DNA of 64,000 nt, taken from the NCBI GenBank assembly GCA_963773905.1, contig CAVZDB010000008.1:575200-639199 (forward strand), in the 5' to 3' direction. Shown here one piece after another: positions 5,344 to 62,246 of the stretch; position 1 is the first letter of the stretch, and each line of letters begins with the position of its first letter. The notes under the pieces are model-generated. The model worked only from the letters and a program-made list of their open reading frames with translations. It searched no databases and had not been told where the DNA came from. The stretch is from an uncultured Acidobacteriota bacterium (GTDB lineage Bacteria; Acidobacteriota; Thermoanaerobaculia; UBA5066; Gp7-AA6). The translations under genes were made by a program, and so were the position numbers.

Positions 5344-6395
5344 AGGCCGTCTTCTTCACCGAGCACGGGGACGCCTCCGTGCTTCGTTACGGCGACCGGC
5401 CCACGCCGGAGCCGGCCGCCGGAGAGGTGCGCGTGGCGATCCGCGCCGCGGCGCTCAACCACCTCGACCTCTTCGTGCGCGAGGGGATTCCGGGCGTGCC
5501 CCTGCCGCAGATCCCGGGCGGCGACGGGGCGGGCACCGTGGATCGTCTGGGAGAGGGCGTCTCGGGCCTCACCCCCGGCGACCGCGTGCTGATTCAGCCC
5601 GGCCTGTACGACAACACCTGCGAGTTCTGCCGCGCAGGCGAGCAGAGCCTGTGCGTGAGCTACAAGATCCTGGGCGAGCACACCCTGGGAACCTTCGCCG
5701 AGTACGTCGTCCTTCCGGCGCGCAACGTCTTTCCGATCCCCGCCGGGCTCTCGTTCCCGCGCGCCGCGGCATTCCCGCTGGCATACCAGACCGCCTGGCG
5801 GCTCCTCGTCGGACGGGCGGCCGTCCGGCCGGGAGAGACGGTGCTGGTCCACGGCGCGGGAGGAGGAGTCGCCGGGGCCGCGATCGAGATCGCGCGGCTC
5901 GCCGGGGCCCGGGTCCTCGCCACCACGTCGGGCGAGGAGAAGATGACGCGGCTGCGCGAGTCCGGCGTCGAGCTCGCGATCGACTACAAGAAGGAGGACG
6001 TGCTGGCGGCGGTGCGCGCGCACACCGCGAAGCGGGGGGTCGACGTCATCGTGGACACCGTGGGCGAGGCGACCTGGATGATCTCCCTCAAGGCGGCCGC
6101 CCGGGGCGGTCGCATCGTGACCTGCGGCGCGACGAGCGGTCCCAATCCCAAGGAGGAGATCCGCCAGATCTTCTGGAAGCACCTCTCGATCCTGGGATCC
6201 ACCATGGCGAACGATCGGGAGTTTCGGGCGCTCTACTCCGCGGTGGCTTCGGGTCGGCTGAAGCCGCGCGTGGATCGGGTCTTCTCGCTCGCGCAGGCCC
6301 GCGAGGCCTTCGCCTACATGGAAGAGGGGCGGCAGAACGGGAAGATCGTGCTGGTGCCGGAAGGGGCCGAGCGGGGCTGGCCGGACGGCGACTGA
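5340..6395 (+). CDS. Zinc-type alcohol dehydrogenase / NADPH:quinone oxidoreductase family (MDR)
   Basis: MKAVFFTEHGDASVLRYGDRPTPEP..., GDRVLIQP, VLVHGAGGGVAGAAIEIAR (Rossmann fold). ATGA overlap with the upstream gene. Confidence 0.85.
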   Translation: MKAVFFTEHGDASVLRYGDRPTPEPAAGEVRVAIRAAALNHLDLFVREGIPGVPLPQIPGGDGAGTVDRLGEGVSGLTPGDRVLIQPGLYDNTCEFCRAGEQSLCVSYKILGEHTLGTFAEYVVLPARNVFPIPAGLSFPRAAAFPLAYQTAWRLLVGRAAVRPGETVLVHGAGGGVAGAAIEIARLAGARVLATTSGEEKMTRLRESGVELAIDYKKEDVLAAVRAHTAKRGVDVIVDTVGEATWMISLKAAARGGRIVTCGATSGPNPKEEIRQIFWKHLSILGSTMANDREFRALYSAVASGRLKPRVDRVFSLAQAREAFAYMEEGRQNGKIVLVPEGAERGWPDGD

Positions 6396-6608
6396 CACGT
6401 CGCCCTCGCGGCTCGCGCTGACGCGCTCGACCGCTGCGGGCTCCCGCATCGCGCAGCTCCTCCCTCCTTCGTCGGGAGACTCTGCGCGATGCGGACTCTC
6501 GCGACAGCGCCTCGAGTTGAGGAGCTTGGGTCTGTTGTCGAGGGGGCTCGTGCGATAATCGCTCGTCCTCGTCCAGTCCGCAGGCGGTTCTCGCCGGCGG
6601 ACCCAACC

Positions 6609-7313
6609 ATGACCGAATCCCAACCGCGTCGCGCCTTTCGCATCCACGACCTGCCTTCCGAGGAGCGGCCCCGCGAGCGCCTGCTGCGCCTGGGCCCGGC
6701 GGCCCTGTCCAACGAGGAACTCGTCTCGCTCCTTCTGCGCACCGGGATCCCCGGGAGTAGCGCGCTCGACCGCGCCCGCGGCCTCCTCTCGGCGCACGGC
6801 GGCCTCGCCGGGCTCTCCCTGCTGGGTCCCGAGGAGCTGCTGAACGAGCGCGGCGTCGGGCCGACCCGCGCCTGTGCGATCGCCGCGGCGGTCGAGATCG
6901 CGCGGCGGCTCCCCGCGGCGGCTCTGGGCGGCCGCGACCTCCTCCACTCGCCGGACCTCGTCAAGGAGTTCCTGCGTCGGGCGCAGGCCGACGACGCGCA
7001 GGAGCGCACGGGAGCGCTGTTCCTGAATGCGCGGAATCGGCTCCTGCGCAACGACGCCGAGATCTATCGCGGCACCCTGGACCGCGCCGTCGTCGAGCCG
7101 CGGGAGATCCTCCGCCGCGCGCTCCTGACCAAGGCGGCGGGCGTGATCCTGTACCACAACCATCCTTCCGGCGACCCGTCTCCCTCGCGGGAGGACCGCG
7201 AGTTCACGCGCCGACTCGCCGCGGCCGCCGAGGCGGTCGGCGTCCGACTGCTCGATCACATCGTCGTGGGCCGGGAGGCCTGCGTCTCGTTTCGCGAGGC
7301 AGGCTTGTTGTGA
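6609..7313 (+). CDS. radC: RadC-family JAB-domain protein
   Basis: Contains ERPRERLLRLGPAALSNEELVSLLLRTG and HNHPSGDPSPSREDREFTRRL (JAMM motif). Confidence 0.9.
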   Translation: MTESQPRRAFRIHDLPSEERPRERLLRLGPAALSNEELVSLLLRTGIPGSSALDRARGLLSAHGGLAGLSLLGPEELLNERGVGPTRACAIAAAVEIARRLPAAALGGRDLLHSPDLVKEFLRRAQADDAQERTGALFLNARNRLLRNDAEIYRGTLDRAVVEPREILRRALLTKAAGVILYHNHPSGDPSPSREDREFTRRLAAAAEAVGVRLLDHIVVGREACVSFREAGLL

Positions 7314-7341: not shown

Positions 7342-9379
7342 ATGAAGACGTATTACGCGACGACGCCGATCTACTACGTCAACGACCTGCCCCACATCGG
7401 GCACATCTACTCGACGGTGGTCACCGACGCGATGACGCGGTACCGGCGACTGATCGGCGAGAAGACGCGCTTTTTGACGGGCACGGACGAGCATGGGCAG
7501 AACATCGAGAAGGCGGCGATGGCGCAGGGCATCATGCCCCTCGCGCTGGCCGACCGCGTGGTCGCCCGCTACGAGCAGCTCTACCGGACCTTCGAGATCC
7601 AGAACGACGACTTCATCCGGACGACACAGGAGCGCCACAAGCGGGGCGTCCAGGCGCTGATCGGGCGGATCGACGCCGCGGGCGACTTCTACACCGCGAA
7701 GCACGAGGGCTGGTACTGCGCCAGCTGCGAGGCGTTCTACACGGAGAAGGAGCTCGACGCGACGAGCAACGACAAGAAGTGTCCCGTTCACGGCATTCCG
7801 ACCGCGTGGGAATCGGAGGAGAACGTCTTCTTCCGGCTCTCGAAATACGCGGAGCCGCTGCTCCGGCACTACGAGAGCCAGCCGGGCTTCGTGCGGCCCG
7901 AGAGCCGGCTCGCGGAGGTCGTCTCCTTCGTGAAGTCGGGCCTCTCCGACCTGTCGGTGTCGCGGACCAAGGTGAAGTGGGGGATCCCGTTCCCGGGGCA
8001 TCCCGGGCACGTCGTGTACGTGTGGCTGGACGCGCTCGCGAACTACATCACGGCTCTCGGGTTCGGCCAGGGCGGCGATGCGGAGGCGCTCTACCGCGAG
8101 TTCTGGGATCACCCCGAGGCGGAGCGCGTCCACGTCATCGGCAAGGACATCCTGCGGTTCCACGCGGTCTACTGGCCGGCGTTTCTGCTCTCGGCCGGCG
8201 TGCCCCTGCCGACGCGCGTCTGGGCGCACGGCTGGTGGCTGCGCGACGCGAAGAAGGTCTCCAAGTCCGTCGGCAACATCGTGCGTCCGGACCAGCTCGT
8301 CGCGGATTTCGGCCCCGACGCCCTGCGCTACTTCCTGCTGCGCGAGATGGCGTTCGGCCAGGACGCGAACTTCTCGGACGAGGCGTTCCTGACCCGGTAC
8401 AACGCCGACCTCGCCAACGACCTGGGCAACACCGTGTCCCGCGTCGCCGCGCTGCTGCGGCAGTCCTTCGGCGGCACGCCCAACGAGGTCTGCGACGACA
8501 ACGAGATCCTCGCGGCCTACGGCGACGCGCGCGCGGAGTGGCAGGCCGCGCTCGGCGACTGCCAGTTCAACCGGGCGCTCGAGGCCGTGTGGAAATTCCT
8601 CTCGGTGATCAACGGATTCATCGTCGCCAGGGAGCCCTGGAAGATCCGCAAGGAGGAGGGCGCGGATTCCGGCCGCCTGCACCGCATACTGTCGGCCGCG
8701 GCGGAGGGGATCCGACTCTCCGCGGTGATGCTCTCGCCGTTTCTTCCGGGGATCAGCCGGAGAATCTTCGCGACCTTCGCGATGGAGGCGAAGGACCCGT
8801 CGGCGCGGGACCTCGCGTGGGGAGGGCTTCCCGTCTCGCGGCCCATGCCGGAGGCGCCGGCTCTTTTCCCGCGCGTCGACGTCGCCGAATACTTCGCACG
8901 AAAGGACACACCCATGACCGAACCGACCCGGGGAGCACCCGCGGCGCCTGCTTTGCCCGCGGCTGGCGCTGAATCGCAGGCGGCTCCGGCCTCGCCGGCG
9001 GCTGGTGCCCCGCCGGCGGCTGGTGCCGCGGCGGCGCCTTCCGCCGACGACCGCATCGGCATCGAGGACTTCCAGAAGGTCCGGCTGAAGACGGCGAAGA
9101 TCGTCTCGGCCGAGCGCGTCCCGAAGTCGAACAAGCTCATGCGGCTCATGGTCGATCTGGGCGGCGAGCAGCGGCAGATCGTCGCCGGGATCGCGGCGCA
9201 GTACGAGCCCGAAGCGCTCCTCGGGCGCAACGTCGTCGTGGTCGCGAACCTGAAACCGGCGAAGCTCATGGGCGGTCGAGTCCAACGGCATGGTGCTCGC
9301 GGCCTCGGTCGGCGACGCGGGGGAGCCGGTGCTGTTGGATGTGCCGGCGCACGTGCCGGCCGGGAGCAAGGTGAAGTGA
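7342..9379 (+). CDS. metG: Methionyl-tRNA synthetase with C-terminal tRNA-binding domain; one frame break near 9270
   Basis: Contains PIYYVNDLPHIGHIYS (HIGH) and KVSKSVGN (KMSKS). The C-terminal domain IGIEDFQKVRLKTAKIV...KPAKLMG continues in the +1 frame as VESNGMVLAAS...AGSKVK* ending at 9379. Confidence 0.93.
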
Positions 9380-17714: not shown

Positions 17715-20497
17715 CCCATCACCCCGGCGACCTTCTCCACCTGGAACGCCTCGATGATGTCGCCGACCTTGACGTCCTGGTACCGGTCGAGGCCGATGCC
17801 GCATTCGAATCCCTGTTTGACCTCCGACACGTCGTCCTTGAAGCGGCGCAGCGACCCCACCTTGCCCTCGTAGATCACGCGGTTGTCGCGCAGAAGACGC
17901 AGCTGCGCCGAACGCGGGATCGTGCCCTCGGTGACGTAGCAGCCGGCGACGATGCCGAACTTCGGGACCTTGAAGGTGTTGCGCACCTCGGCGCGGCCCC
18001 TGGCGACTTCCTTGAGGGTCGGGTCCAGCAGGCCCTCCATCGCCTTCTTGATCTCGTCGGTCACGTTGTAGATGACCGTGTGGAGGCGGATGTCGACGCC
18101 GGCCTTCTCGGCCTCCTCCGCGGCCTTCTTCTCGGGCCGCACGTTGAAGCCGACGATGATCGCGCTCGAGGCCGAGGCGAGGAGCACGTCGTTGATGTTG
18201 ATGGCGCCCACGCCCGAGTGCAGGAGCGAGATCTTGACCTTGTCGTTGGAGAGCGCCTTGAGGGACTGCGACAGCACCTCGACGGATCCCGAGACGTCGG
18301 CCTTCAGGATGATCGGCAGATCCTTGATCTTGCCTTCCTGGATCTTGCTGAACAGCTGTTCGAGCGAGAGGCGCGAGGAGGAGGCCATGGCCTTCTCCCG
18401 GTCCTTCTGCTGGCGGAAGCTCACGATCGAGCGCGCGCGCGTCTCGTCCTCGACGACCTGGAAGGGATCGCCGGCCTGCGGCAGCTCCTCGAAGCCCGTG
18501 ACCTCGACGGGCGTCGCCGGGCCCGCCTCCAGGACCCGCGCACCGTGGTCGTCCTGCATCGAGCGGACGCGGCCGAACGCGGAGCCCGCGAAGAACACGT
18601 CGCCCACGTGCAGAGTGCCGGACTGGACGAGAACGGTCGCGAGGTTTCCTCGCCCCGCCTCGCGCCGCGCCTCGAGCACGACGCCCCGGGCCTCCGCCGC
18701 CTCCGCCGCCGAGAGCTCCTGCAGGTCCGCGACGAGGAGGATCAGCTCGAGGAGGTGGTCGATGCCCTGCTTCTTCGTCGCCGAGATCTCGGCGGAGGGC
18801 ACGTCGCCGCCCCAGGACTCGAGGAGCACGTTGCGGTCGGCCAGCTCCTTCTTGACGCGGTCCACGTTCGCGTTGGGCTTGTCGATCTTGTTGATCGCCA
18901 CGACGATCGGCACCTTCGCGGCGCGCGCGTGGTCGATGGCCTCGACGGTCTGGGGCATCACGGCGTCGTCGGCGGCCACGACCAGGACGACGATGTCCGT
19001 GGCCTTGGCGCCGCGCGCGCGCATCGAGGTGAACGCCTCGTGGCCGGGCGTGTCCAGGAAGACGATCGGCTTGCCGTGGGTCTCGACGCGGTAGGCGCCG
19101 ATGTGTTGCGTGATGCCGCCCGCCTCGCCCGCCGCGACGTTGGTCTGGCGGATCGCGTCGAGCAGGGAGGTCTTCCCGTGGTCGACGTGGCCCATGACCG
19201 TCACGACCGGCGCCCGCGGAACGCGCGGGGCCGCGGACTCGCCGACGTCCTGGGAGCGCGTGAGCTCCATCTCCTCTTCGAAGGAGACGACCGCGGCCTC
19301 GACGCCGATCTCGCGGGCGAGCTGGACCGCCGTCGCCGCGTCGAGGGTCTGGTTGACCGTCGCGAGCACGCCGCGCTGCATCAGCAGCCGCTGGATGTCG
19401 CGAGTCAGCACGCCGAGCTTCTCCGAGAGCTCCTTGACCGTGACGCCCTCGGTGAAGAAAACCGGACCGGTCGGTGCGGGCTTCTTGAACTCGAGGAGCT
19501 TGCCGGAGTCGTGCGCCCGGGTTTCCTTCGCAGCGCGACGAATGGCCGACTTGGAGACGGGGCGCGCCGCGTTGGTGGCGGCCGCATCGGCCTCGTCGGA
19601 CGCCGTCTTCTCGATCAGCGGCAGCGAGATGTCGGAGTACGTGTCCTCCTGGTAGGTTCCCACGAACTCGCGCAGATCGACCTCGTCCGCGACGGTGATC
19701 TTCGGACGGGCGCCACGCTTGCCGGCGGCCGTCTTCTTGGCGTCGTCTTTGTCGTCCTTCTTGCGCTTGGCGGGTCCGGTGCGCTCCGGAACGGCCGGGC
19801 CCGTCGTTCGGCCGAGCGGGGCGCCGGGCCGCGGGGGTCCTCCCGGCGGGCGCGCGCCGGGGCCTCCGGGCGTCGGCCGGTAGACCGAGGGGCCCGTCGG
19901 GCGCAGGCCGCCCGTGGGTCCGCCGACGCGCGGGCCCATCGGGCCCATCGGACGCGCCGGGCCCGTCGGGCGAAGGCCGCCCGTGGGTCCGGCCGCGGGC
20001 CGTGCAAAATTGCCGGGGCCCGTCGGCGGCCGGGGGGCCGGTCGCGGGGGCAGGACGATCTTTCTCGGAACGGGCGGGGCGGCCGGGCGCGGGGCCTCGG
20101 GCTCCGGCTCTGCCGGAACCACGGCCGTCCGCGCGGGCTCGGCCGGCTTGGCTGCGGCCTTCGGTTCCGCTGGGGGCGCGCGGCGCGGCGCGGGCGCCTC
20201 GGTCTCGGGCTCTGCCGGCGAGGCCTCGGGCTCGCCCTTGGCCCCCGGGGCCTTGTCGATGATCTTGATGCGGTTGAGCGCGCTCTTCTGCGGCCGGACG
20301 GCGCGCGCCTCGTTGTCGCGGACGATCAGCTGCTTGGGCGCGTGGGTCTTGCCCTGCAGGATCGCGAGGACCGTCGACTCATCCAGCGCGGCCTGCGGAG
20401 ACTTGACATCGACACCGATCGACTGGAGCAGGAAGAGAACTTCCTTGCTCCCAATGCCCATCTGGGCGGCAAGCTCTTCGACTCGAATCTTTCCCAT
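17711..20497 (-). CDS. infB: Translation initiation factor IF-2
   Basis: 928 aa with a Pro/Ala-rich linker and G-domain motifs [17 protein letters not shown] and NKID. Confidence 0.97.
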
Positions 20498-34574: not shown

Positions 34575-34649
<75 letters not shown>

Positions 34650-34665
34650 GTCTCTTCGTTATTGC

Positions 34666-34741
34666 AGGCGCTTAGCTCAGCTGGGAGAGCGCTTCCTTCA
34701 CACGGAAGAGGTCAACGGTTCGATCCCGTTAGCGCCTACCA
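34666..34741 (+). tRNA. tRNA-Val (anticodon CAC), CCA encoded
   Basis: Acceptor AGGCGCT/AGCGCCT, anticodon stem CTTCC/GGAAG with loop TTCACAC, T arm AACGG-TTCGATC-CCGTT. Confidence 0.9.
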
Positions 34742-36757: not shown

Positions 36758-37298
36758 GAAGAGTATCCGTGTCAACGAACAGATCCGCTGGAAAGAGGTT
36801 CGCCTGATCGGCGCGGAGGGCGAGGCGATCGGCGTCGTGCCGATGGCCGAGGCGCTGCAGAAGGCCCGCGAGGCGGCGCTCGACCTGGTCGAGATCGCCC
36901 CGACGGCCCAACCCCCGGTCTGCCGGATCATGAACTTCGGAAAGTTCATCTACCAGCAGAAGAAGAAGCAGCAGGACTCGAAGAAGAAGCAGAAGACGAC
37001 GCAGGTCAAGGAAGTGAAGTTTCGTCCCAACATCGACGACCACGACTACGACTTCAAGATGAAGAACATCCTCAAGTTCCTGTCCCACGGCGACAAGGTC
37101 AAGGCGACCGTGCAGTTCCGTGGACGGGAGATGGCGCGCCGCGAAAACGGCCAGAGGGTCCTCGACCGACTCCTCAAGGACCTGGTCGGCAAGGCGGTGG
37201 CCGAGTCGCGCTCCGAGATGCTGGGCAACCGGCTGTACCAGATCCTCTCGCCGGTGAAGCACGAGAAGGTGCCGGTGCCCGTCAAGAGCGGCGCCTGA
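36750..37298 (+). CDS. infC: Translation initiation factor IF-3, probable non-AUG (AUC) start
   Basis: The frame is open from just after the in-frame TGA at 36744-36746. It reads IDKKSIRVNEQIRWKEVRLIGAEGEAIGVV...VCRIMNFGKFIYQ. There is no ATG/GTG/TTG before the conserved N-terminal domain; ORF 36837..37298 covers only the rest. Confidence 0.85.
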   Translation: MDKKSIRVNEQIRWKEVRLIGAEGEAIGVVPMAEALQKAREAALDLVEIAPTAQPPVCRIMNFGKFIYQQKKKQQDSKKKQKTTQVKEVKFRPNIDDHDYDFKMKNILKFLSHGDKVKATVQFRGREMARRENGQRVLDRLLKDLVGKAVAESRSEMLGNRLYQILSPVKHEKVPVPVKSGA

Positions 37299-45505: not shown

Positions 45506-46348
45506 ATGCGCCCTCGCCTCACCGCAATCGTCACGACCTTCAACGAGGAGGTCAACATCCAGGCCTGCCTCGAGAGCCTCGCCTTCGCGGACGAGATCCT
45601 GCTGGTCGACTCCTTCTCGACGGACCGCACGCTCGCGCTCGCGCGGTCCATTCCGGAGGAGCGGCTGCGGCTGAGAATCGTCCAGCGCGAATACTTCGGC
45701 TCGGCCGCGCAGAAGAACTGGGCCATGGATCAGGTCACGACGCCCTGGATCCTGATCGTGGACGCCGACGAGCGCGTCCCGGAGCCGCTCGCGCGCGAGA
45801 TCCTGGCGCTCCTCGAGGCGGGGCCCGGCGCGAAGCACTACTTCCTCCGCCGGGAAAATTTCTTCCTCGGCAAGCGCATCCGTCACAGCGGCTGGTCGAC
45901 CGACAAGGTCGTGCGGCTGTTCGAGCGCGGCGCGGCGCGCTATCCGAACCGGCGCGTCCACGCCGATCTCGCGGCGCAGGGGCCGACGCCGACGCTCATG
46001 CACGCCATGGTCCACGAGACCTACCGCTCGCTCGACCAGGCCCTCGAGAAGCTCCACCGCTACGCGGTGTGGGCGGCGGCCGACGCGTATCGGGCCCGCC
46101 GCAGCCCCGGGCCCGTCGAGCTCGTCTTCCGGCCGCTCTGGCGCTTCTTTCGCATGTACTTCGTCCAGGCGGGGTTTCTCGACGGCCGCCACGGGCTGGT
46201 ACTCTGCGCGCTCCAGGCCTACGGCGTCTTCCTGAAGTGGGCGCGGGTGTGGGAGTGGGAGATGCTCGAGAGGCGTGGCCTGCCGGTGAGCCTGCCCGCG
46301 TTCGACGAGACGCGGGAGACCTGGGAGGGAACGGGCGGGAATCGATGA
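45506..46348 (+). CDS. Glycosyltransferase family 2 (LPS-core WaaE/KdtX-like)
   Basis: Contains TAIVTTFNEEVNIQACLESL, LLVDSFSTDRT and ILIVDADERV. Confidence 0.75.
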   Translation: MRPRLTAIVTTFNEEVNIQACLESLAFADEILLVDSFSTDRTLALARSIPEERLRLRIVQREYFGSAAQKNWAMDQVTTPWILIVDADERVPEPLAREILALLEAGPGAKHYFLRRENFFLGKRIRHSGWSTDKVVRLFERGAARYPNRRVHADLAAQGPTPTLMHAMVHETYRSLDQALEKLHRYAVWAAADAYRARRSPGPVELVFRPLWRFFRMYFVQAGFLDGRHGLVLCALQAYGVFLKWARVWEWEMLERRGLPVSLPAFDETRETWEGTGGNR

Positions 46349-46836
46349 CTCTCGTCGGAATCTTCAAGACGCTGCTGTGGAGGCCCAAGATGCTGTCCGT
46401 CGGCGACCAGGCTCCCGAGTTCGCGGTTCCGGACCACAACGGCGTGATGCGCCGGCTCTCGGATTACCGCGGCAAGAACCTCGTGCTCTGGTTCTATCCG
46501 AAGGCCGACACCCCCGGTTGAACCCTCGAGGGTCGCGGGTTCCGCGACCACTACCCCGAGTTCCAGGCCAGGAACGCGGAGATCCTGGGCGCCTCGTTCG
46601 ATACCCCGGAGGAGAATGCCGTCTTCGCGGAGAAGCAGGGGTTCCCCTTCCCGCTGCTCTGCGACGTCGATCGGAAGATCGGCATGGCCTACGGGTCCGC
46701 GGAGTCGCCGACGAGCGAGTTCGCCAAGCGCATCAGCTACGTCATCGGCCCCGACGGCAGGATCGCGCAGGCGTACCCGAAGGTCTCGCCGAAGACGCAC
46801 CCCGAGGAGGTTCTGGCCGTCCTCTCGATGGAATAG
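46345..46836 (+). CDS. bcp: Bcp-type peroxiredoxin with in-frame UGA (selenocysteine candidate) at the peroxidatic position
   Basis: The ORF ends ...LVLWFYPKADTPG-TGA(46519-46521). The same frame continues TLEGRGFRDHYPEFQARNAEILGASFDTPEEN...FPLLCD...SYVIGPDGRI to TAG 46834-46836. The canonical family motif is FYPKDxTPGCTxE. Confidence 0.85.
46531..46549 (+). promoter_or_regulatory. SECIS-like hairpin downstream of the bcp UGA
   Basis: GGUCGCGG-GUU-CCGCGACC, a perfect 8-bp stem. It starts 9 nt after the UGA, and the G/U loop is at +21..+23 from the U of UGA. Confidence 0.7.
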
Positions 46837-60630: not shown

Positions 60631-61542
60631 ATGGAGACCTGGCCGAGCCTCCCCCTCCAGGGATGGGCCGACACCTACGCGACGCTGCACCTCTGGACGC
60701 AGATCGTCGGAAAGATCCGGCTCGTCACGACGCCGCCGATCAACCACTGCTGGAACGTGACGCTGTACGTGACCGCGCGCGGGCTCACGACCGGGCCGAT
60801 GCCGCACGGCGAGCGCACGTTCCAGATCGACTTCGACTTCCTGGACCACGCGCTGCGCATCGCGGCGGGCGACGGCGCGACCGGGAGCGTCCCCCTCGAG
60901 CCCCAGTCGGTGGCGGCGTTCTACCGCCGGCTCTTCGCGGAGCTCGACCGACTCGGGCTCTCCGTGAGGATCCACGAGAATCCCAACGAGGTCGCGGAAC
61001 CGATCCCGTTCGATCGGGACGAGCGCCACGCGTCCTACGATCCCGACGCGGCGCAGCGGTTCTGGCGGATCCTCCAGCAGTCGGACCGCGTGTTCCAGCG
61101 CTTCCGCTCGCGCTTCATCGGCAAGTGCAGCCCGGTCCACTTCTTCTGGGGAGCGCCGGACCTCGCCGTCACGCGCTTCTCGGGCCGCCCGGCGCCGCTC
61201 CACCCCGGCGGCGTGCCCGGACTGCCGGACCGCGTGACCCGCGACGCCTACTCGCACGAGGTCAGCAGCGCCGGCTTCTGGCCGGGCGGCGGTCCGATCG
61301 CGTACCCCGCGTACTACTCCTACGCGTATCCCGAGCCGCCCGGGTTCGCGCAGGCGCCCGTCGAGCCCGGGGCGGCGTTCTACTCGACGGATCTCAAGGA
61401 GTTCCTCCTGCCGTACGACGCGGTGCGGACGGCGGCCTCGCCGGACGACGCGCTTCTCGCCTTCCTGCAGTCGACCTACGAGGCGGCGGCGAACGCGGCC
61501 GCCTGGGACCGGCGGGCGCTCGAACGGGCGCAGAGCGCATGA
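60631..61542 (+). CDS. DUF5996 family protein
   Basis: 303 aa with WPSLPLQGWADTYATLHLWTQIVGKIRL...NHCWNVTLYVTARGLTT. Confidence 0.72.
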   Translation: METWPSLPLQGWADTYATLHLWTQIVGKIRLVTTPPINHCWNVTLYVTARGLTTGPMPHGERTFQIDFDFLDHALRIAAGDGATGSVPLEPQSVAAFYRRLFAELDRLGLSVRIHENPNEVAEPIPFDRDERHASYDPDAAQRFWRILQQSDRVFQRFRSRFIGKCSPVHFFWGAPDLAVTRFSGRPAPLHPGGVPGLPDRVTRDAYSHEVSSAGFWPGGGPIAYPAYYSYAYPEPPGFAQAPVEPGAAFYSTDLKEFLLPYDAVRTAASPDDALLAFLQSTYEAAANAAAWDRRALERAQSA

Positions 61543-62246
61543 GCGCGTCCGGACAGTCCGGATCGGACCTCGAGGTCAAGATGGCCGTGTACCGGCACTT
61601 CGCGGAGACGGCGCGCCGGCCGTCGCCCGGGGAGGTCGCCGCGCGCGCGGGCGTGCCGGCCGCCGAGGTGCCCGCGGCGTACGCGAGGCTTCGCGCGCAG
61701 CGGGTGCTCGTCCTCGAGGAGGACGGCGTCTCGATCCGGATGGCGCCGCCCTTCTCGGGCGTCCCGACGCAGCACGTGGCGGTCGTGGCGGAGAAGCGGT
61801 ACTTCGCCAACTGCGCGTGGGACGTCTTCGGGATAGTCGCAGCCCTTCAGAAGCCCGGCGCCGTCGAGTCGCGCTGCGAGCAGACGCACGAGCCGCTGCG
61901 CCTCGCGATCGGGCCGGAGGGCCCGGGCGGTTCCGACTGGCTCTTCCACTGCGCCGTTCCGGCCGCGCAGTGGTGGGACGACATCGTCCTGACCTGAAGC
62001 CGCATGCTCTTCTTCCGGTCGGAAGAAAGGGTGCGGGAGTGGTGCGAGGGCCTCGGGATCCCGGTGCGCCCGCTCGTTGCGCTCGAACAGCTCTGGGGGC
62101 TCGCGGTCGCCTGGTACTCCACGCGGCTCCAGCCGACCTCGCGTCGGCCGCAGCCCGAGGAGATGCGGCGGATCTTCGCCGGCCTCGGCCTCGAGGGGCC
62201 GTTCTGGGACCCGCAGTCGGACCGCTTCTCGTCCGCCGGGTCCTAG
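61539..62246 (+). CDS. MerB (alkylmercury lyase)-family protein with in-frame UGA (selenocysteine candidate) at the Cys159-equivalent position
   Basis: ORF 61539..61997 (FANCAWDVFG = Cys-x-x-Asp) and ORF 62004..62246 (MLFFRSEERVREW...) share one frame. They are separated by TGA 61995-61997. ATGA overlap with the DUF5996 gene. Confidence 0.75.
62010..62027 (+). promoter_or_regulatory. SECIS-like hairpin downstream of the merB-like UGA
   Basis: UUCUUCC-GGUC-GGAAGAA, a perfect 7-bp stem. The GGUC tetraloop is at +23..+26 from the U of UGA. The stem can be extended outward with wobble pairs. Confidence 0.7.

Follow-up and report, generated by a model that had tools for sequence, protein, structure and literature searches.

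We analysed a 64,000-nucleotide stretch of DNA from an uncultured Acidobacteriota bacterium of the Thermoanaerobaculia (assembly GCA_963773905.1, contig CAVZDB010000008.1, positions 575,200 to 639,199 of the forward strand), referred to below as the window. Two adjacent open reading frames (ORFs) of this window, 61539-61997 and 62004-62246, very probably form a single gene of the MerB (organomercurial lyase) family, 61539-62246, in which an in-frame UGA is decoded as selenocysteine (Sec153). Comparison with related loci gives good support to what we consider new here, namely a widespread and systematically mis-annotated clade of Sec-containing MerB-like proteins that appears distinct both from the MerB of mer operons and from SaoL, a MerB-like selenoprotein described earlier. 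As read from its genes, this clade almost always uses Sec and is encoded by a solitary gene in metagenome-assembled genomes (MAGs) of several phyla. The elements of the gene are the following.

61539..62246, + strand: complete MerB-family gene as proposed, 235 codons, with Sec at codon 153 and a TAG stop at 62244-62246
Within 61539..62246, + strand: N-terminal winged-helix-like region and MerB catalytic core, placed by the Pfam match of the joined translation and by the alignment to MerB of the PDB across the TGA
61812..61823, + strand: C92-A-W-D95, aligned with MerB Cys96-x-x-Asp99 (metal-binding thiolate and proton donor)
61995..61997, + strand: in-frame UGA, proposed selenocysteine 153, in the column of MerB catalytic Cys159 (TGA in 81/81 orthologs, Cys in distant homologs)
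61998..62243, + strand: C-terminal 82 codons after Sec, matching MerB residues ~160-211 and containing the nearly invariant W168-C169
62010..62027, + strand: upper stem-loop of the putative selenocysteine insertion sequence (SECIS), with stem 62010-62016 TTCTTCC / 62021-62027 GGAAGAA and loop GGTC (GGUC) at 62017-62020

The two ORFs share one frame and their sole interruption is the TGA at 61995-61997, as the original prediction had stated; we verified all of these coordinates. The in-frame coding parts run from 61539 to 61994 upstream of the TGA and from 61998 to 62243 downstream of it, and the true stop is the TAG at 62244-62246. In the joined protein FANCAWDVFG corresponds to residues 89-98 and SRMLFFRSEERVREW to residues 154-168.

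The joined ORFs match a complete MerB domain

When both ORFs were translated as one protein, the product matched the Pfam family PF03243 over profile positions 1-125 of 126, with 85 bits (cutoff 27). Taken separately, each ORF matched the profile in part only, the N-terminal one at positions 1-80 and the C-terminal one at positions 88-125. The full MerB domain appears exclusively when the ORFs are joined, which argues that both belong to one gene.

A phmmer search against the PDB aligned residues 76-204 of the joined protein with residues 80-211 of MerB, across the TGA. In this alignment C92 and D95 lie on Cys96 and Asp99, in agreement with the earlier proposal that FANCAWDVFG is the Cys96-x-x-Asp99 motif of MerB, and the TGA column lies on Cys159 ('sfCSHVHFF' vs 'ltUSRMLFF'), that is, on the catalytic residue to which the UGA had been assigned. 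The catalytic column hence holds a UGA instead of a Cys codon in this gene, and a Cys in more distant homologs. Both C92 and D95 are invariant in an alignment of 14 homologous sequences.

The fold was tested with the AlphaFold model of a full-length relative, P0007, which is 58% identical to the window protein (predicted local distance difference test, pLDDT, 73.6). The 11 best PDB matches that Foldseek found for this model were all MerB or MerB2, with template modelling (TM) scores of 0.47-0.65 over ~200 columns. Since these structural alignments cover both flanks of the Sec position, the 82 residues that follow the UGA are likely to be integral to the fold.

The internal TGA is conserved across species

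To place the gene among its orthologs, one genome per GTDB species was scanned (371 relatives), and the comparisons reported here were made on the best 80 loci plus the window, 81 in all. The MAG labels of these 80 loci are Acidobacteriota/Thermoanaerobaculia, Verrucomicrobiota, Gemmatimonadota, Eisenbacteria, Chloroflexota, Anaeromyxobacteraceae, Ignavibacteria, Calditrichaeota and others, a phylum spread that rests on bin labels and may include mis-binned contigs. Their G+C content ranges from 0.435 to 0.725.

A TGA was found at the identical column in 80/80 species loci, followed each time by ~78 conserved in-frame codons. With the window included, 81/81 genes have TGA as the internal codon, whereas their terminal stops are mixed (TAG in 31, TGA in 31 and TAA in 19). 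This comparison points to TGA-specific selection on the internal codon and, since UGA also serves as a terminal stop in these genomes, speaks against a wholesale change of the genetic code. Entropy at codon positions 1, 2 and 3 is 0.65, 0.50 and 1.33 bits in the tail that follows the UGA, and 0.43, 0.33 and 1.20 bits in the N-terminal part; the tail thus has the periodicity of coding sequence, which indicates purifying selection in this frame. The local motif, T-U-S in the window, is F/L-T-U-x in 81/81 orthologs.

The base call itself was confirmed in an independent assembly of run ERR11523651, in which 1537 nt are identical to the window, TGA included. Furthermore, the exact 32-nt pattern made up of the TGA plus the hairpin described below occurs in at least 120 metagenome contigs.

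The original prediction had also asked whether close homologs stop at this point as stand-alone proteins. A search of 5.8 billion proteins yielded 4402 clusters and, among the best 120, almost all members were ~146 aa long and ended exactly at the UGA; gene callers place a second gene, of 75 aa, 7 nt downstream of these truncated homologs. Conversely, an exhaustive search with the C-terminal ORF returned mostly fragments of 70-78 aa beginning at the Met that follows the TGA. Database entries thus do end here, but always at a TGA and with a conserved in-frame continuation behind it. In GenBank, MAG annotations label the truncated forms 'organomercurial lyase'.

A conserved hairpin with the features of a bacterial SECIS follows the UGA

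The hairpin at 62010-62027 begins after 12 nt of spacer, and its GGUC loop lies at +23..+26 (the U of UGA being +1); the perfect 7-bp stem that had been predicted to close this loop was found exactly there. The prediction had likened the element to the SECIS of fdhF from Escherichia coli. In the K-12 genome the fdhF UGA is at codon 140 and the GGUC at +22..+25, so that the likeness holds: loop sequence and near-equal position are common to both elements, and the fdhF hairpin likewise begins ~12 nt after the UGA. The upper stem of the fdhF SECIS contains a bulged U, unlike the window hairpin, whose minimum free energy (MFE) fold shows a tight tetraloop on a perfect 7-bp stem, with no bulge in the upper helix. 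A lower stem, 62000-62005 / 62031-62036, is also predicted in the window and extends the element to ~62000-62036.

The consensus of bacterial SECIS elements (bSECIS) comprises a loop of 3-9 nt with a G in the first two loop positions, a stem of 4-16 bp, a spacing of 16-37 nt and an MFE of -7.5 kcal/mol or lower (PMC13188914). The window hairpin lies within these constraints, with its GGUC loop, 7 bp, 19-nt spacing and an energy of -7.5 kcal/mol for the helix alone or -22.5 kcal/mol for the whole element. Applying the energy cut to the uninterrupted helix alone, 58/80 loci pass and 22 fail. For these 22 the MFE of the whole segment is -8.6 kcal/mol or lower, and in most of them the same hairpin is still predicted, its uninterrupted helix being shorter. 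Five loci have an intact hairpin sequence but another structure as their MFE fold.

Judged from the window sequence by itself, the fold is not striking (z = -1.85; 8/200 shuffles fold as well), and the case for the hairpin is hence carried by the comparison between genomes. Over 76 distinct sequences, the seven stem pairs are formed in 98.9% of the cells of the alignment. In L076 and L084, two of the species, both partners of the closing C-G pair differ and give A-U, and most of the remaining stem changes replace U-A by a U·G wobble. The hairpin is formed by codons +5 to +9 (F F R S E), whose synonymous diversity is 0-0.12, compared to 0.3-0.75 for these amino acids at other sites of the gene; in the same way, third-position entropy drops to 0.26 bits over the hairpin, from 1.2-1.33 elsewhere. 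This suppression of synonymous variation argues for a constraint at the RNA level on top of the coding sequence.

Distant homologs carry cysteine in the Sec column

Five homologs that are full-length or longer and share 29-40% identity with the window protein (P0224, P0238, P0265, P0196 and P0236) have T-C-[SAGT] where the window has T-TGA-S. The column of the UGA is therefore one in which more distant relatives have Cys, as the original prediction would have it. The codon in this column is TGC in 4/4 of the Cys-form homologs whose DNA was fetched (all but P0236). Three of these four keep an LFRSE-type peptide but not the hairpin, with energies of -1.3 to -2.9 kcal/mol vs -7.5 kcal/mol. At the locus of the Cys form P0196 (L216), a CUCUUCC-GGUU-GGAAGAG hairpin is retained at the homologous place, downstream of the TGC; it may be a fossil SECIS left by a recent switch from Sec to Cys.

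In close full-length homologs the Sec position is given as W, R or C, each one nucleotide away from TGA. Of these, the one whose DNA was read, P0007, was rejected as a genuine 'W' form, its DNA having TGA. On the Joint Genome Institute (JGI) contig that encodes it (L091), the source pipeline gave Trp for the in-frame TGA, apparently via an alternative genetic code, and the full-length 'W' protein is the spurious result.

Probable selenocysteine use in the window and in related genomes

A second Cys-position UGA with a hairpin had been pointed out at 46519 of the window. It belongs to a separate gene:

46345..46836, + strand: PrxQ/BCP-type peroxiredoxin, with UGA 46519-46521 on the peroxidatic Cys and a hairpin at 46529-46552

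The UGA indeed takes the place of the peroxidatic Cys in an AhpC/TSA peroxiredoxin, with the hairpin downstream of it, and the joined protein matches Pfam AhpC-TSA over positions 1-123 of 124. The hairpin (GUU loop, 8 bp, 17-nt spacing, -14 kcal/mol) complies with the bSECIS consensus, and the protein motif P-KAD-T-PG-U (PKADTPGU) fits PxxxTxxU, the motif of the experimentally known family of Sec-containing peroxiredoxins (PMC13188914). These sequence features mark it as a canonical selenoprotein gene, the second one of the window. Scanning the whole window for in-frame TGA codons with coding signal on both sides gave six sites, among which the peroxiredoxin and the MerB-like gene were the candidates recognised. 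The site at 37296 was dismissed as a Sec candidate, the start of the next gene plainly coming right after it.

Use of Sec in Acidobacteriota is documented for Occallatibacter riparius (PMC12013277). In one of the related loci, from a Chloroflexia MAG (L068), a tRNA-Sec gene is located at 7163-7258 (- strand), ~500 nt downstream of the MerB-like ortholog. SelB was considered for the DNA adjoining this tRNA gene (7385-8086, + strand), which encodes an integrase-like ORF instead; the arrangement suggests that a mobile element integrated at selC in that genome. From the Sec-peroxiredoxin gene, the L068 tRNA-Sec and the documented acidobacterial use of Sec, we infer that the genome of the window organism encodes a Sec machinery.

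Alternative readings of the internal UGA

Several observations weigh against the interpretation of the gene as a Sec-containing enzyme of the MerB family. Neither selA, selB, selC nor selD was detected in the 64-kb window with ARAGORN, Rfam and tblastn using E. coli SelA, SelB and SelD. ARAGORN and Rfam reported only two genes, both for tRNA-Val, and the sole tblastn match to the Sec proteins, a SelB-like one at 18590-19207, lies in an ORF of 928 aa beside NusA-like and TruB-like ORFs; from its size and these neighbours we read it as initiation factor IF2, and not as SelB. Likewise, ~1.4 Mb of related loci gave no matches to SelA, SelB or SelD. As for the hairpin, it matched no Rfam SECIS family (a permissive threshold gave noise only), its stem is nearly invariant, which leaves little true covariation (a single pair, changed in two species), and the lower stem had to be discarded as a part of the SECIS, the alignment supporting the 7-bp upper stem only. 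In the P0007 model, the region around the Sec site (residues 133-153) has a pLDDT of less than 50. Finally, there is no merA, merR, merT or merP nearby and no conserved neighbour that would hint at a substrate, and Hg-Se bonds are very strong and could hinder the release of the product if the substrate contained mercury.

We weighed Sec decoding against three other explanations of the UGA. In the first, recoding inserts an amino acid other than Sec, the hairpin stimulating read-through by a near-cognate tRNA (for Trp, Cys or Arg) or by a suppressor tRNA. That hairpins located past a stop are able to favour read-through in other systems, and that no Sec machinery was found within the 64-kb window, are both consistent with this idea. 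Yet this hairpin fits the Sec-specific bSECIS consensus as well as the loop sequence and position of fdhF, and the presence of Cys at the same column in homologs makes up a classic Sec/Cys pair, while Trp or Arg would be implausible at a metal-binding catalytic position. Moreover, a peroxiredoxin gene with the PxxxTxxU motif is found in the same window and a tRNA-Sec gene adjoins one ortholog (L068). We consider read-through by another amino acid very improbable.

A second explanation takes the TGA for a true stop. The locus would then encode a split MerB, made of a 152-aa protein and of an 80-aa protein separately initiated or reinitiated from the ATG at 62004, and the hairpin would have another role, for example in mRNA stability or translational coupling. 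This is how gene callers annotate the locus everywhere, as two genes, and an ATG (rarely GTG or TTG) is indeed present two codons past the TGA in ~97% of orthologs. A plain stop, however, is expected to drift as the terminal stops of these genes do (31/31/19), which the internal TGA, present in 81/81, has not done. Termination would also remove the equivalent of catalytic Cys159, whereas the distant homologs are single chains with a Cys there, and the Met position is merely hydrophobic (M/I/L) in the Cys forms. No Shine-Dalgarno-like motif was seen upstream of the ATG at 62004, and a stable hairpin 6 nt past that start codon would impede initiation. A split enzyme is in our judgement scarcely credible. 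The third explanation is that the gene has decayed into a pseudogene or that TGY was misread as TGA during sequencing or assembly; the bare in-frame stop is all that speaks for it, and with the TGA also present in 80 other species genomes, at least 120 metagenome contigs and the ERR11523651 assembly, and purifying selection acting on both halves, its probability is practically nil.

Relation to SaoL and to canonical MerB

The original prediction knew of no Sec-containing member of the MerB family. On this point it was mistaken: Haft & Gwadz described in 2022 a MerB-like 'selenocysteine-assisted organometallic lyase', SaoL, which has a C-U motif, whose Sec162 aligns to MerB Cys159 and which sits in a nine-gene selenocysteine-assisted organometallic (SAO) locus of strict anaerobes (bioRxiv 10.1101/2022.07.06.499078). 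Two reviews give SaoL as the sole MerB-like selenoprotein (PMC9312934, PMC13188914). The likenesses to the window protein are membership of the Pfam MerB superfamily, a Sec on Cys159 next to the equivalents of Cys96 and Asp99, database entries that are routinely truncated at the UGA, and a presumed activity of carbon-metal bond cleavage. Identity of the window gene with SaoL is nevertheless ruled out. Its product scores 34.6 bits against the SaoL model NF040728 (cutoff 140), over residues 37-124 only; where SaoL has C-U at the metal site, it has T-U-S, without a vicinal Cys; and, in contrast to SaoL with its SAO locus, the window clade has neither that locus nor any conserved neighbourhood. 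Hosts differ as well, being strict anaerobes for SaoL (Clostridia, spirochaetes and deltaproteobacteria) and mostly soil MAGs of Acidobacteriota, Verrucomicrobiota, Gemmatimonadota, Chloroflexota and Eisenbacteria for the window clade.

With canonical MerB (R831b MerB, PDB 3F0P/3F2G; B. megaterium MerB2, PDB 5C17) the protein has in common the fold, the C-x-x-D motif and the third catalytic position, and the structural Cys117 of the canonical enzyme has a conserved equivalent, C113. Canonical MerB possesses both Cys159 and Cys160, whereas here Sec replaces Cys159 and Cys160 is missing. The NCBIfam equivalogs for MerB, NF009710 and NF033555, give 42.9 bits (cutoff 193) and 35.3 bits (cutoff 200). 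With both scores far under cutoff and no mer genes nearby, the gene is not a canonical mercury-resistance merB. No NCBIfam model in the release of June 2026 reaches its cutoff for the window protein. In the literature we found no description of this clade; our coverage was incomplete and an earlier description elsewhere is possible.

Compared to canonical MerB, the clade carries two additional conserved cysteines, C138 and C169, which may act as resolving or metal hand-off cysteines. C138 (in 'FHC') is ~93% conserved in the Sec clade. C169 is part of the W168-C169 pair (codons +15/+16 after the UGA; 62040-62045), which is absent from canonical MerB; among the 81 orthologs the W at +15 is conserved in 100% and the C at +16 in 99%. 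Variation of another kind is seen in the closest relatives, P0002, P0004, P0005 and P0023 (L007 ~6300-6470), which have one to three tandem inserts of 10 aa, PRGTEVAALQ-like, after the 'AALQ' near residue 104. This variable, in-frame insert inside the enzyme is present in zero copies in the window gene.

Proposed mechanism

If the UGA is decoded as Sec, the hairpin at 62010-62027, with its GGUC loop 19 nt after the UGA, would act as a bacterial SECIS: SelB carrying Sec-tRNA(Sec) would bind the loop while the ribosome is on the UGA, Sec would be inserted instead of termination taking place, and translation would proceed for 82 more codons to the TAG at 62244. The predicted product is a cytoplasmic MerB-family enzyme of 235 residues. 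By homology to MerB, the thiolate of Cys92 and the selenolate of Sec153 would bind the metal of an organometallic substrate, and Asp95 would protonate the leaving carbon, so that the carbon-metal bond is cleaved.

By analogy with MerB, the substrate would most likely be an organomercurial such as methylmercury, although the selenol may shift substrate specificity. Other organometals or organometalloids also come into consideration, given the selenol, the lack of a vicinal Cys, the two additional conserved cysteines (C138 and C169) and the fact that no MerA is encoded nearby. Since the SECIS loop matches that of E. coli fdhF, heterologous expression of the gene may be feasible.

Genomic neighbourhood

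The gene immediately upstream overlaps the MerB-like gene:

60631-61542, + strand: DUF5996 gene (471 bits), whose stop overlaps the start of the MerB-like gene (ATGA)

This ATGA overlap suggests translational coupling of the two genes. As a conserved functional partner, DUF5996 was rejected, being present in only 6/82 loci (window included), all from the nearest Thermoanaerobaculia relatives. The neighbours in the window also comprise a rhodanese-domain gene, a small unclassified ORF, a DUF1697 gene and a nucleoside triphosphate (NTP)-transferase gene, and close relatives additionally carry a GHMP-kinase gene downstream. When the flanking ORFs were clustered, no family occurred in more than 7 of ~80 loci. 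Elsewhere in the window, the two tRNA-Val genes (anticodons GAC and CAC) stand in tandem at 34575-34741 (+ strand), 17 nt apart.

Implications

In databases, thousands of entries belonging to this clade appear as two pieces, a ~146-aa 'organomercurial lyase' and a 75-aa orphan ORF, and surveys of merB in soil and censuses of selenoproteomes consequently miss or miscount it. It is conceivable, though we hold it to be unlikely, that this solitary Sec-containing MerB-like enzyme constitutes, in hundreds of soil species of several phyla, a major methylmercury demethylase independent of mer operons, or else a lyase of other organometals or organometalloids, with a range or kinetics altered by the selenol. 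If this were true, the availability of selenium in soil would be tied directly to the turnover of organometals.

Aerobic bacteria rarely retain selenoproteins, and the use of Sec is concentrated in anaerobes (PMC13188914). The host phyla of the clade are not known as heavy selenium users, and the occurrence in soil Acidobacteriota, Verrucomicrobiota, Gemmatimonadota and Chloroflexota of a Sec enzyme with an almost invariant SECIS would broaden this anaerobe-centred picture. Within the family, Sec at the position of Cys159 would be found in two independent lineages, SaoL and this clade, the clade differing from both SaoL and MerB in that it has no vicinal Cys. Together, the C-C, C-U and T-U active sites would provide a natural comparison set for the role of the selenol in the protonolysis of carbon-metal bonds.

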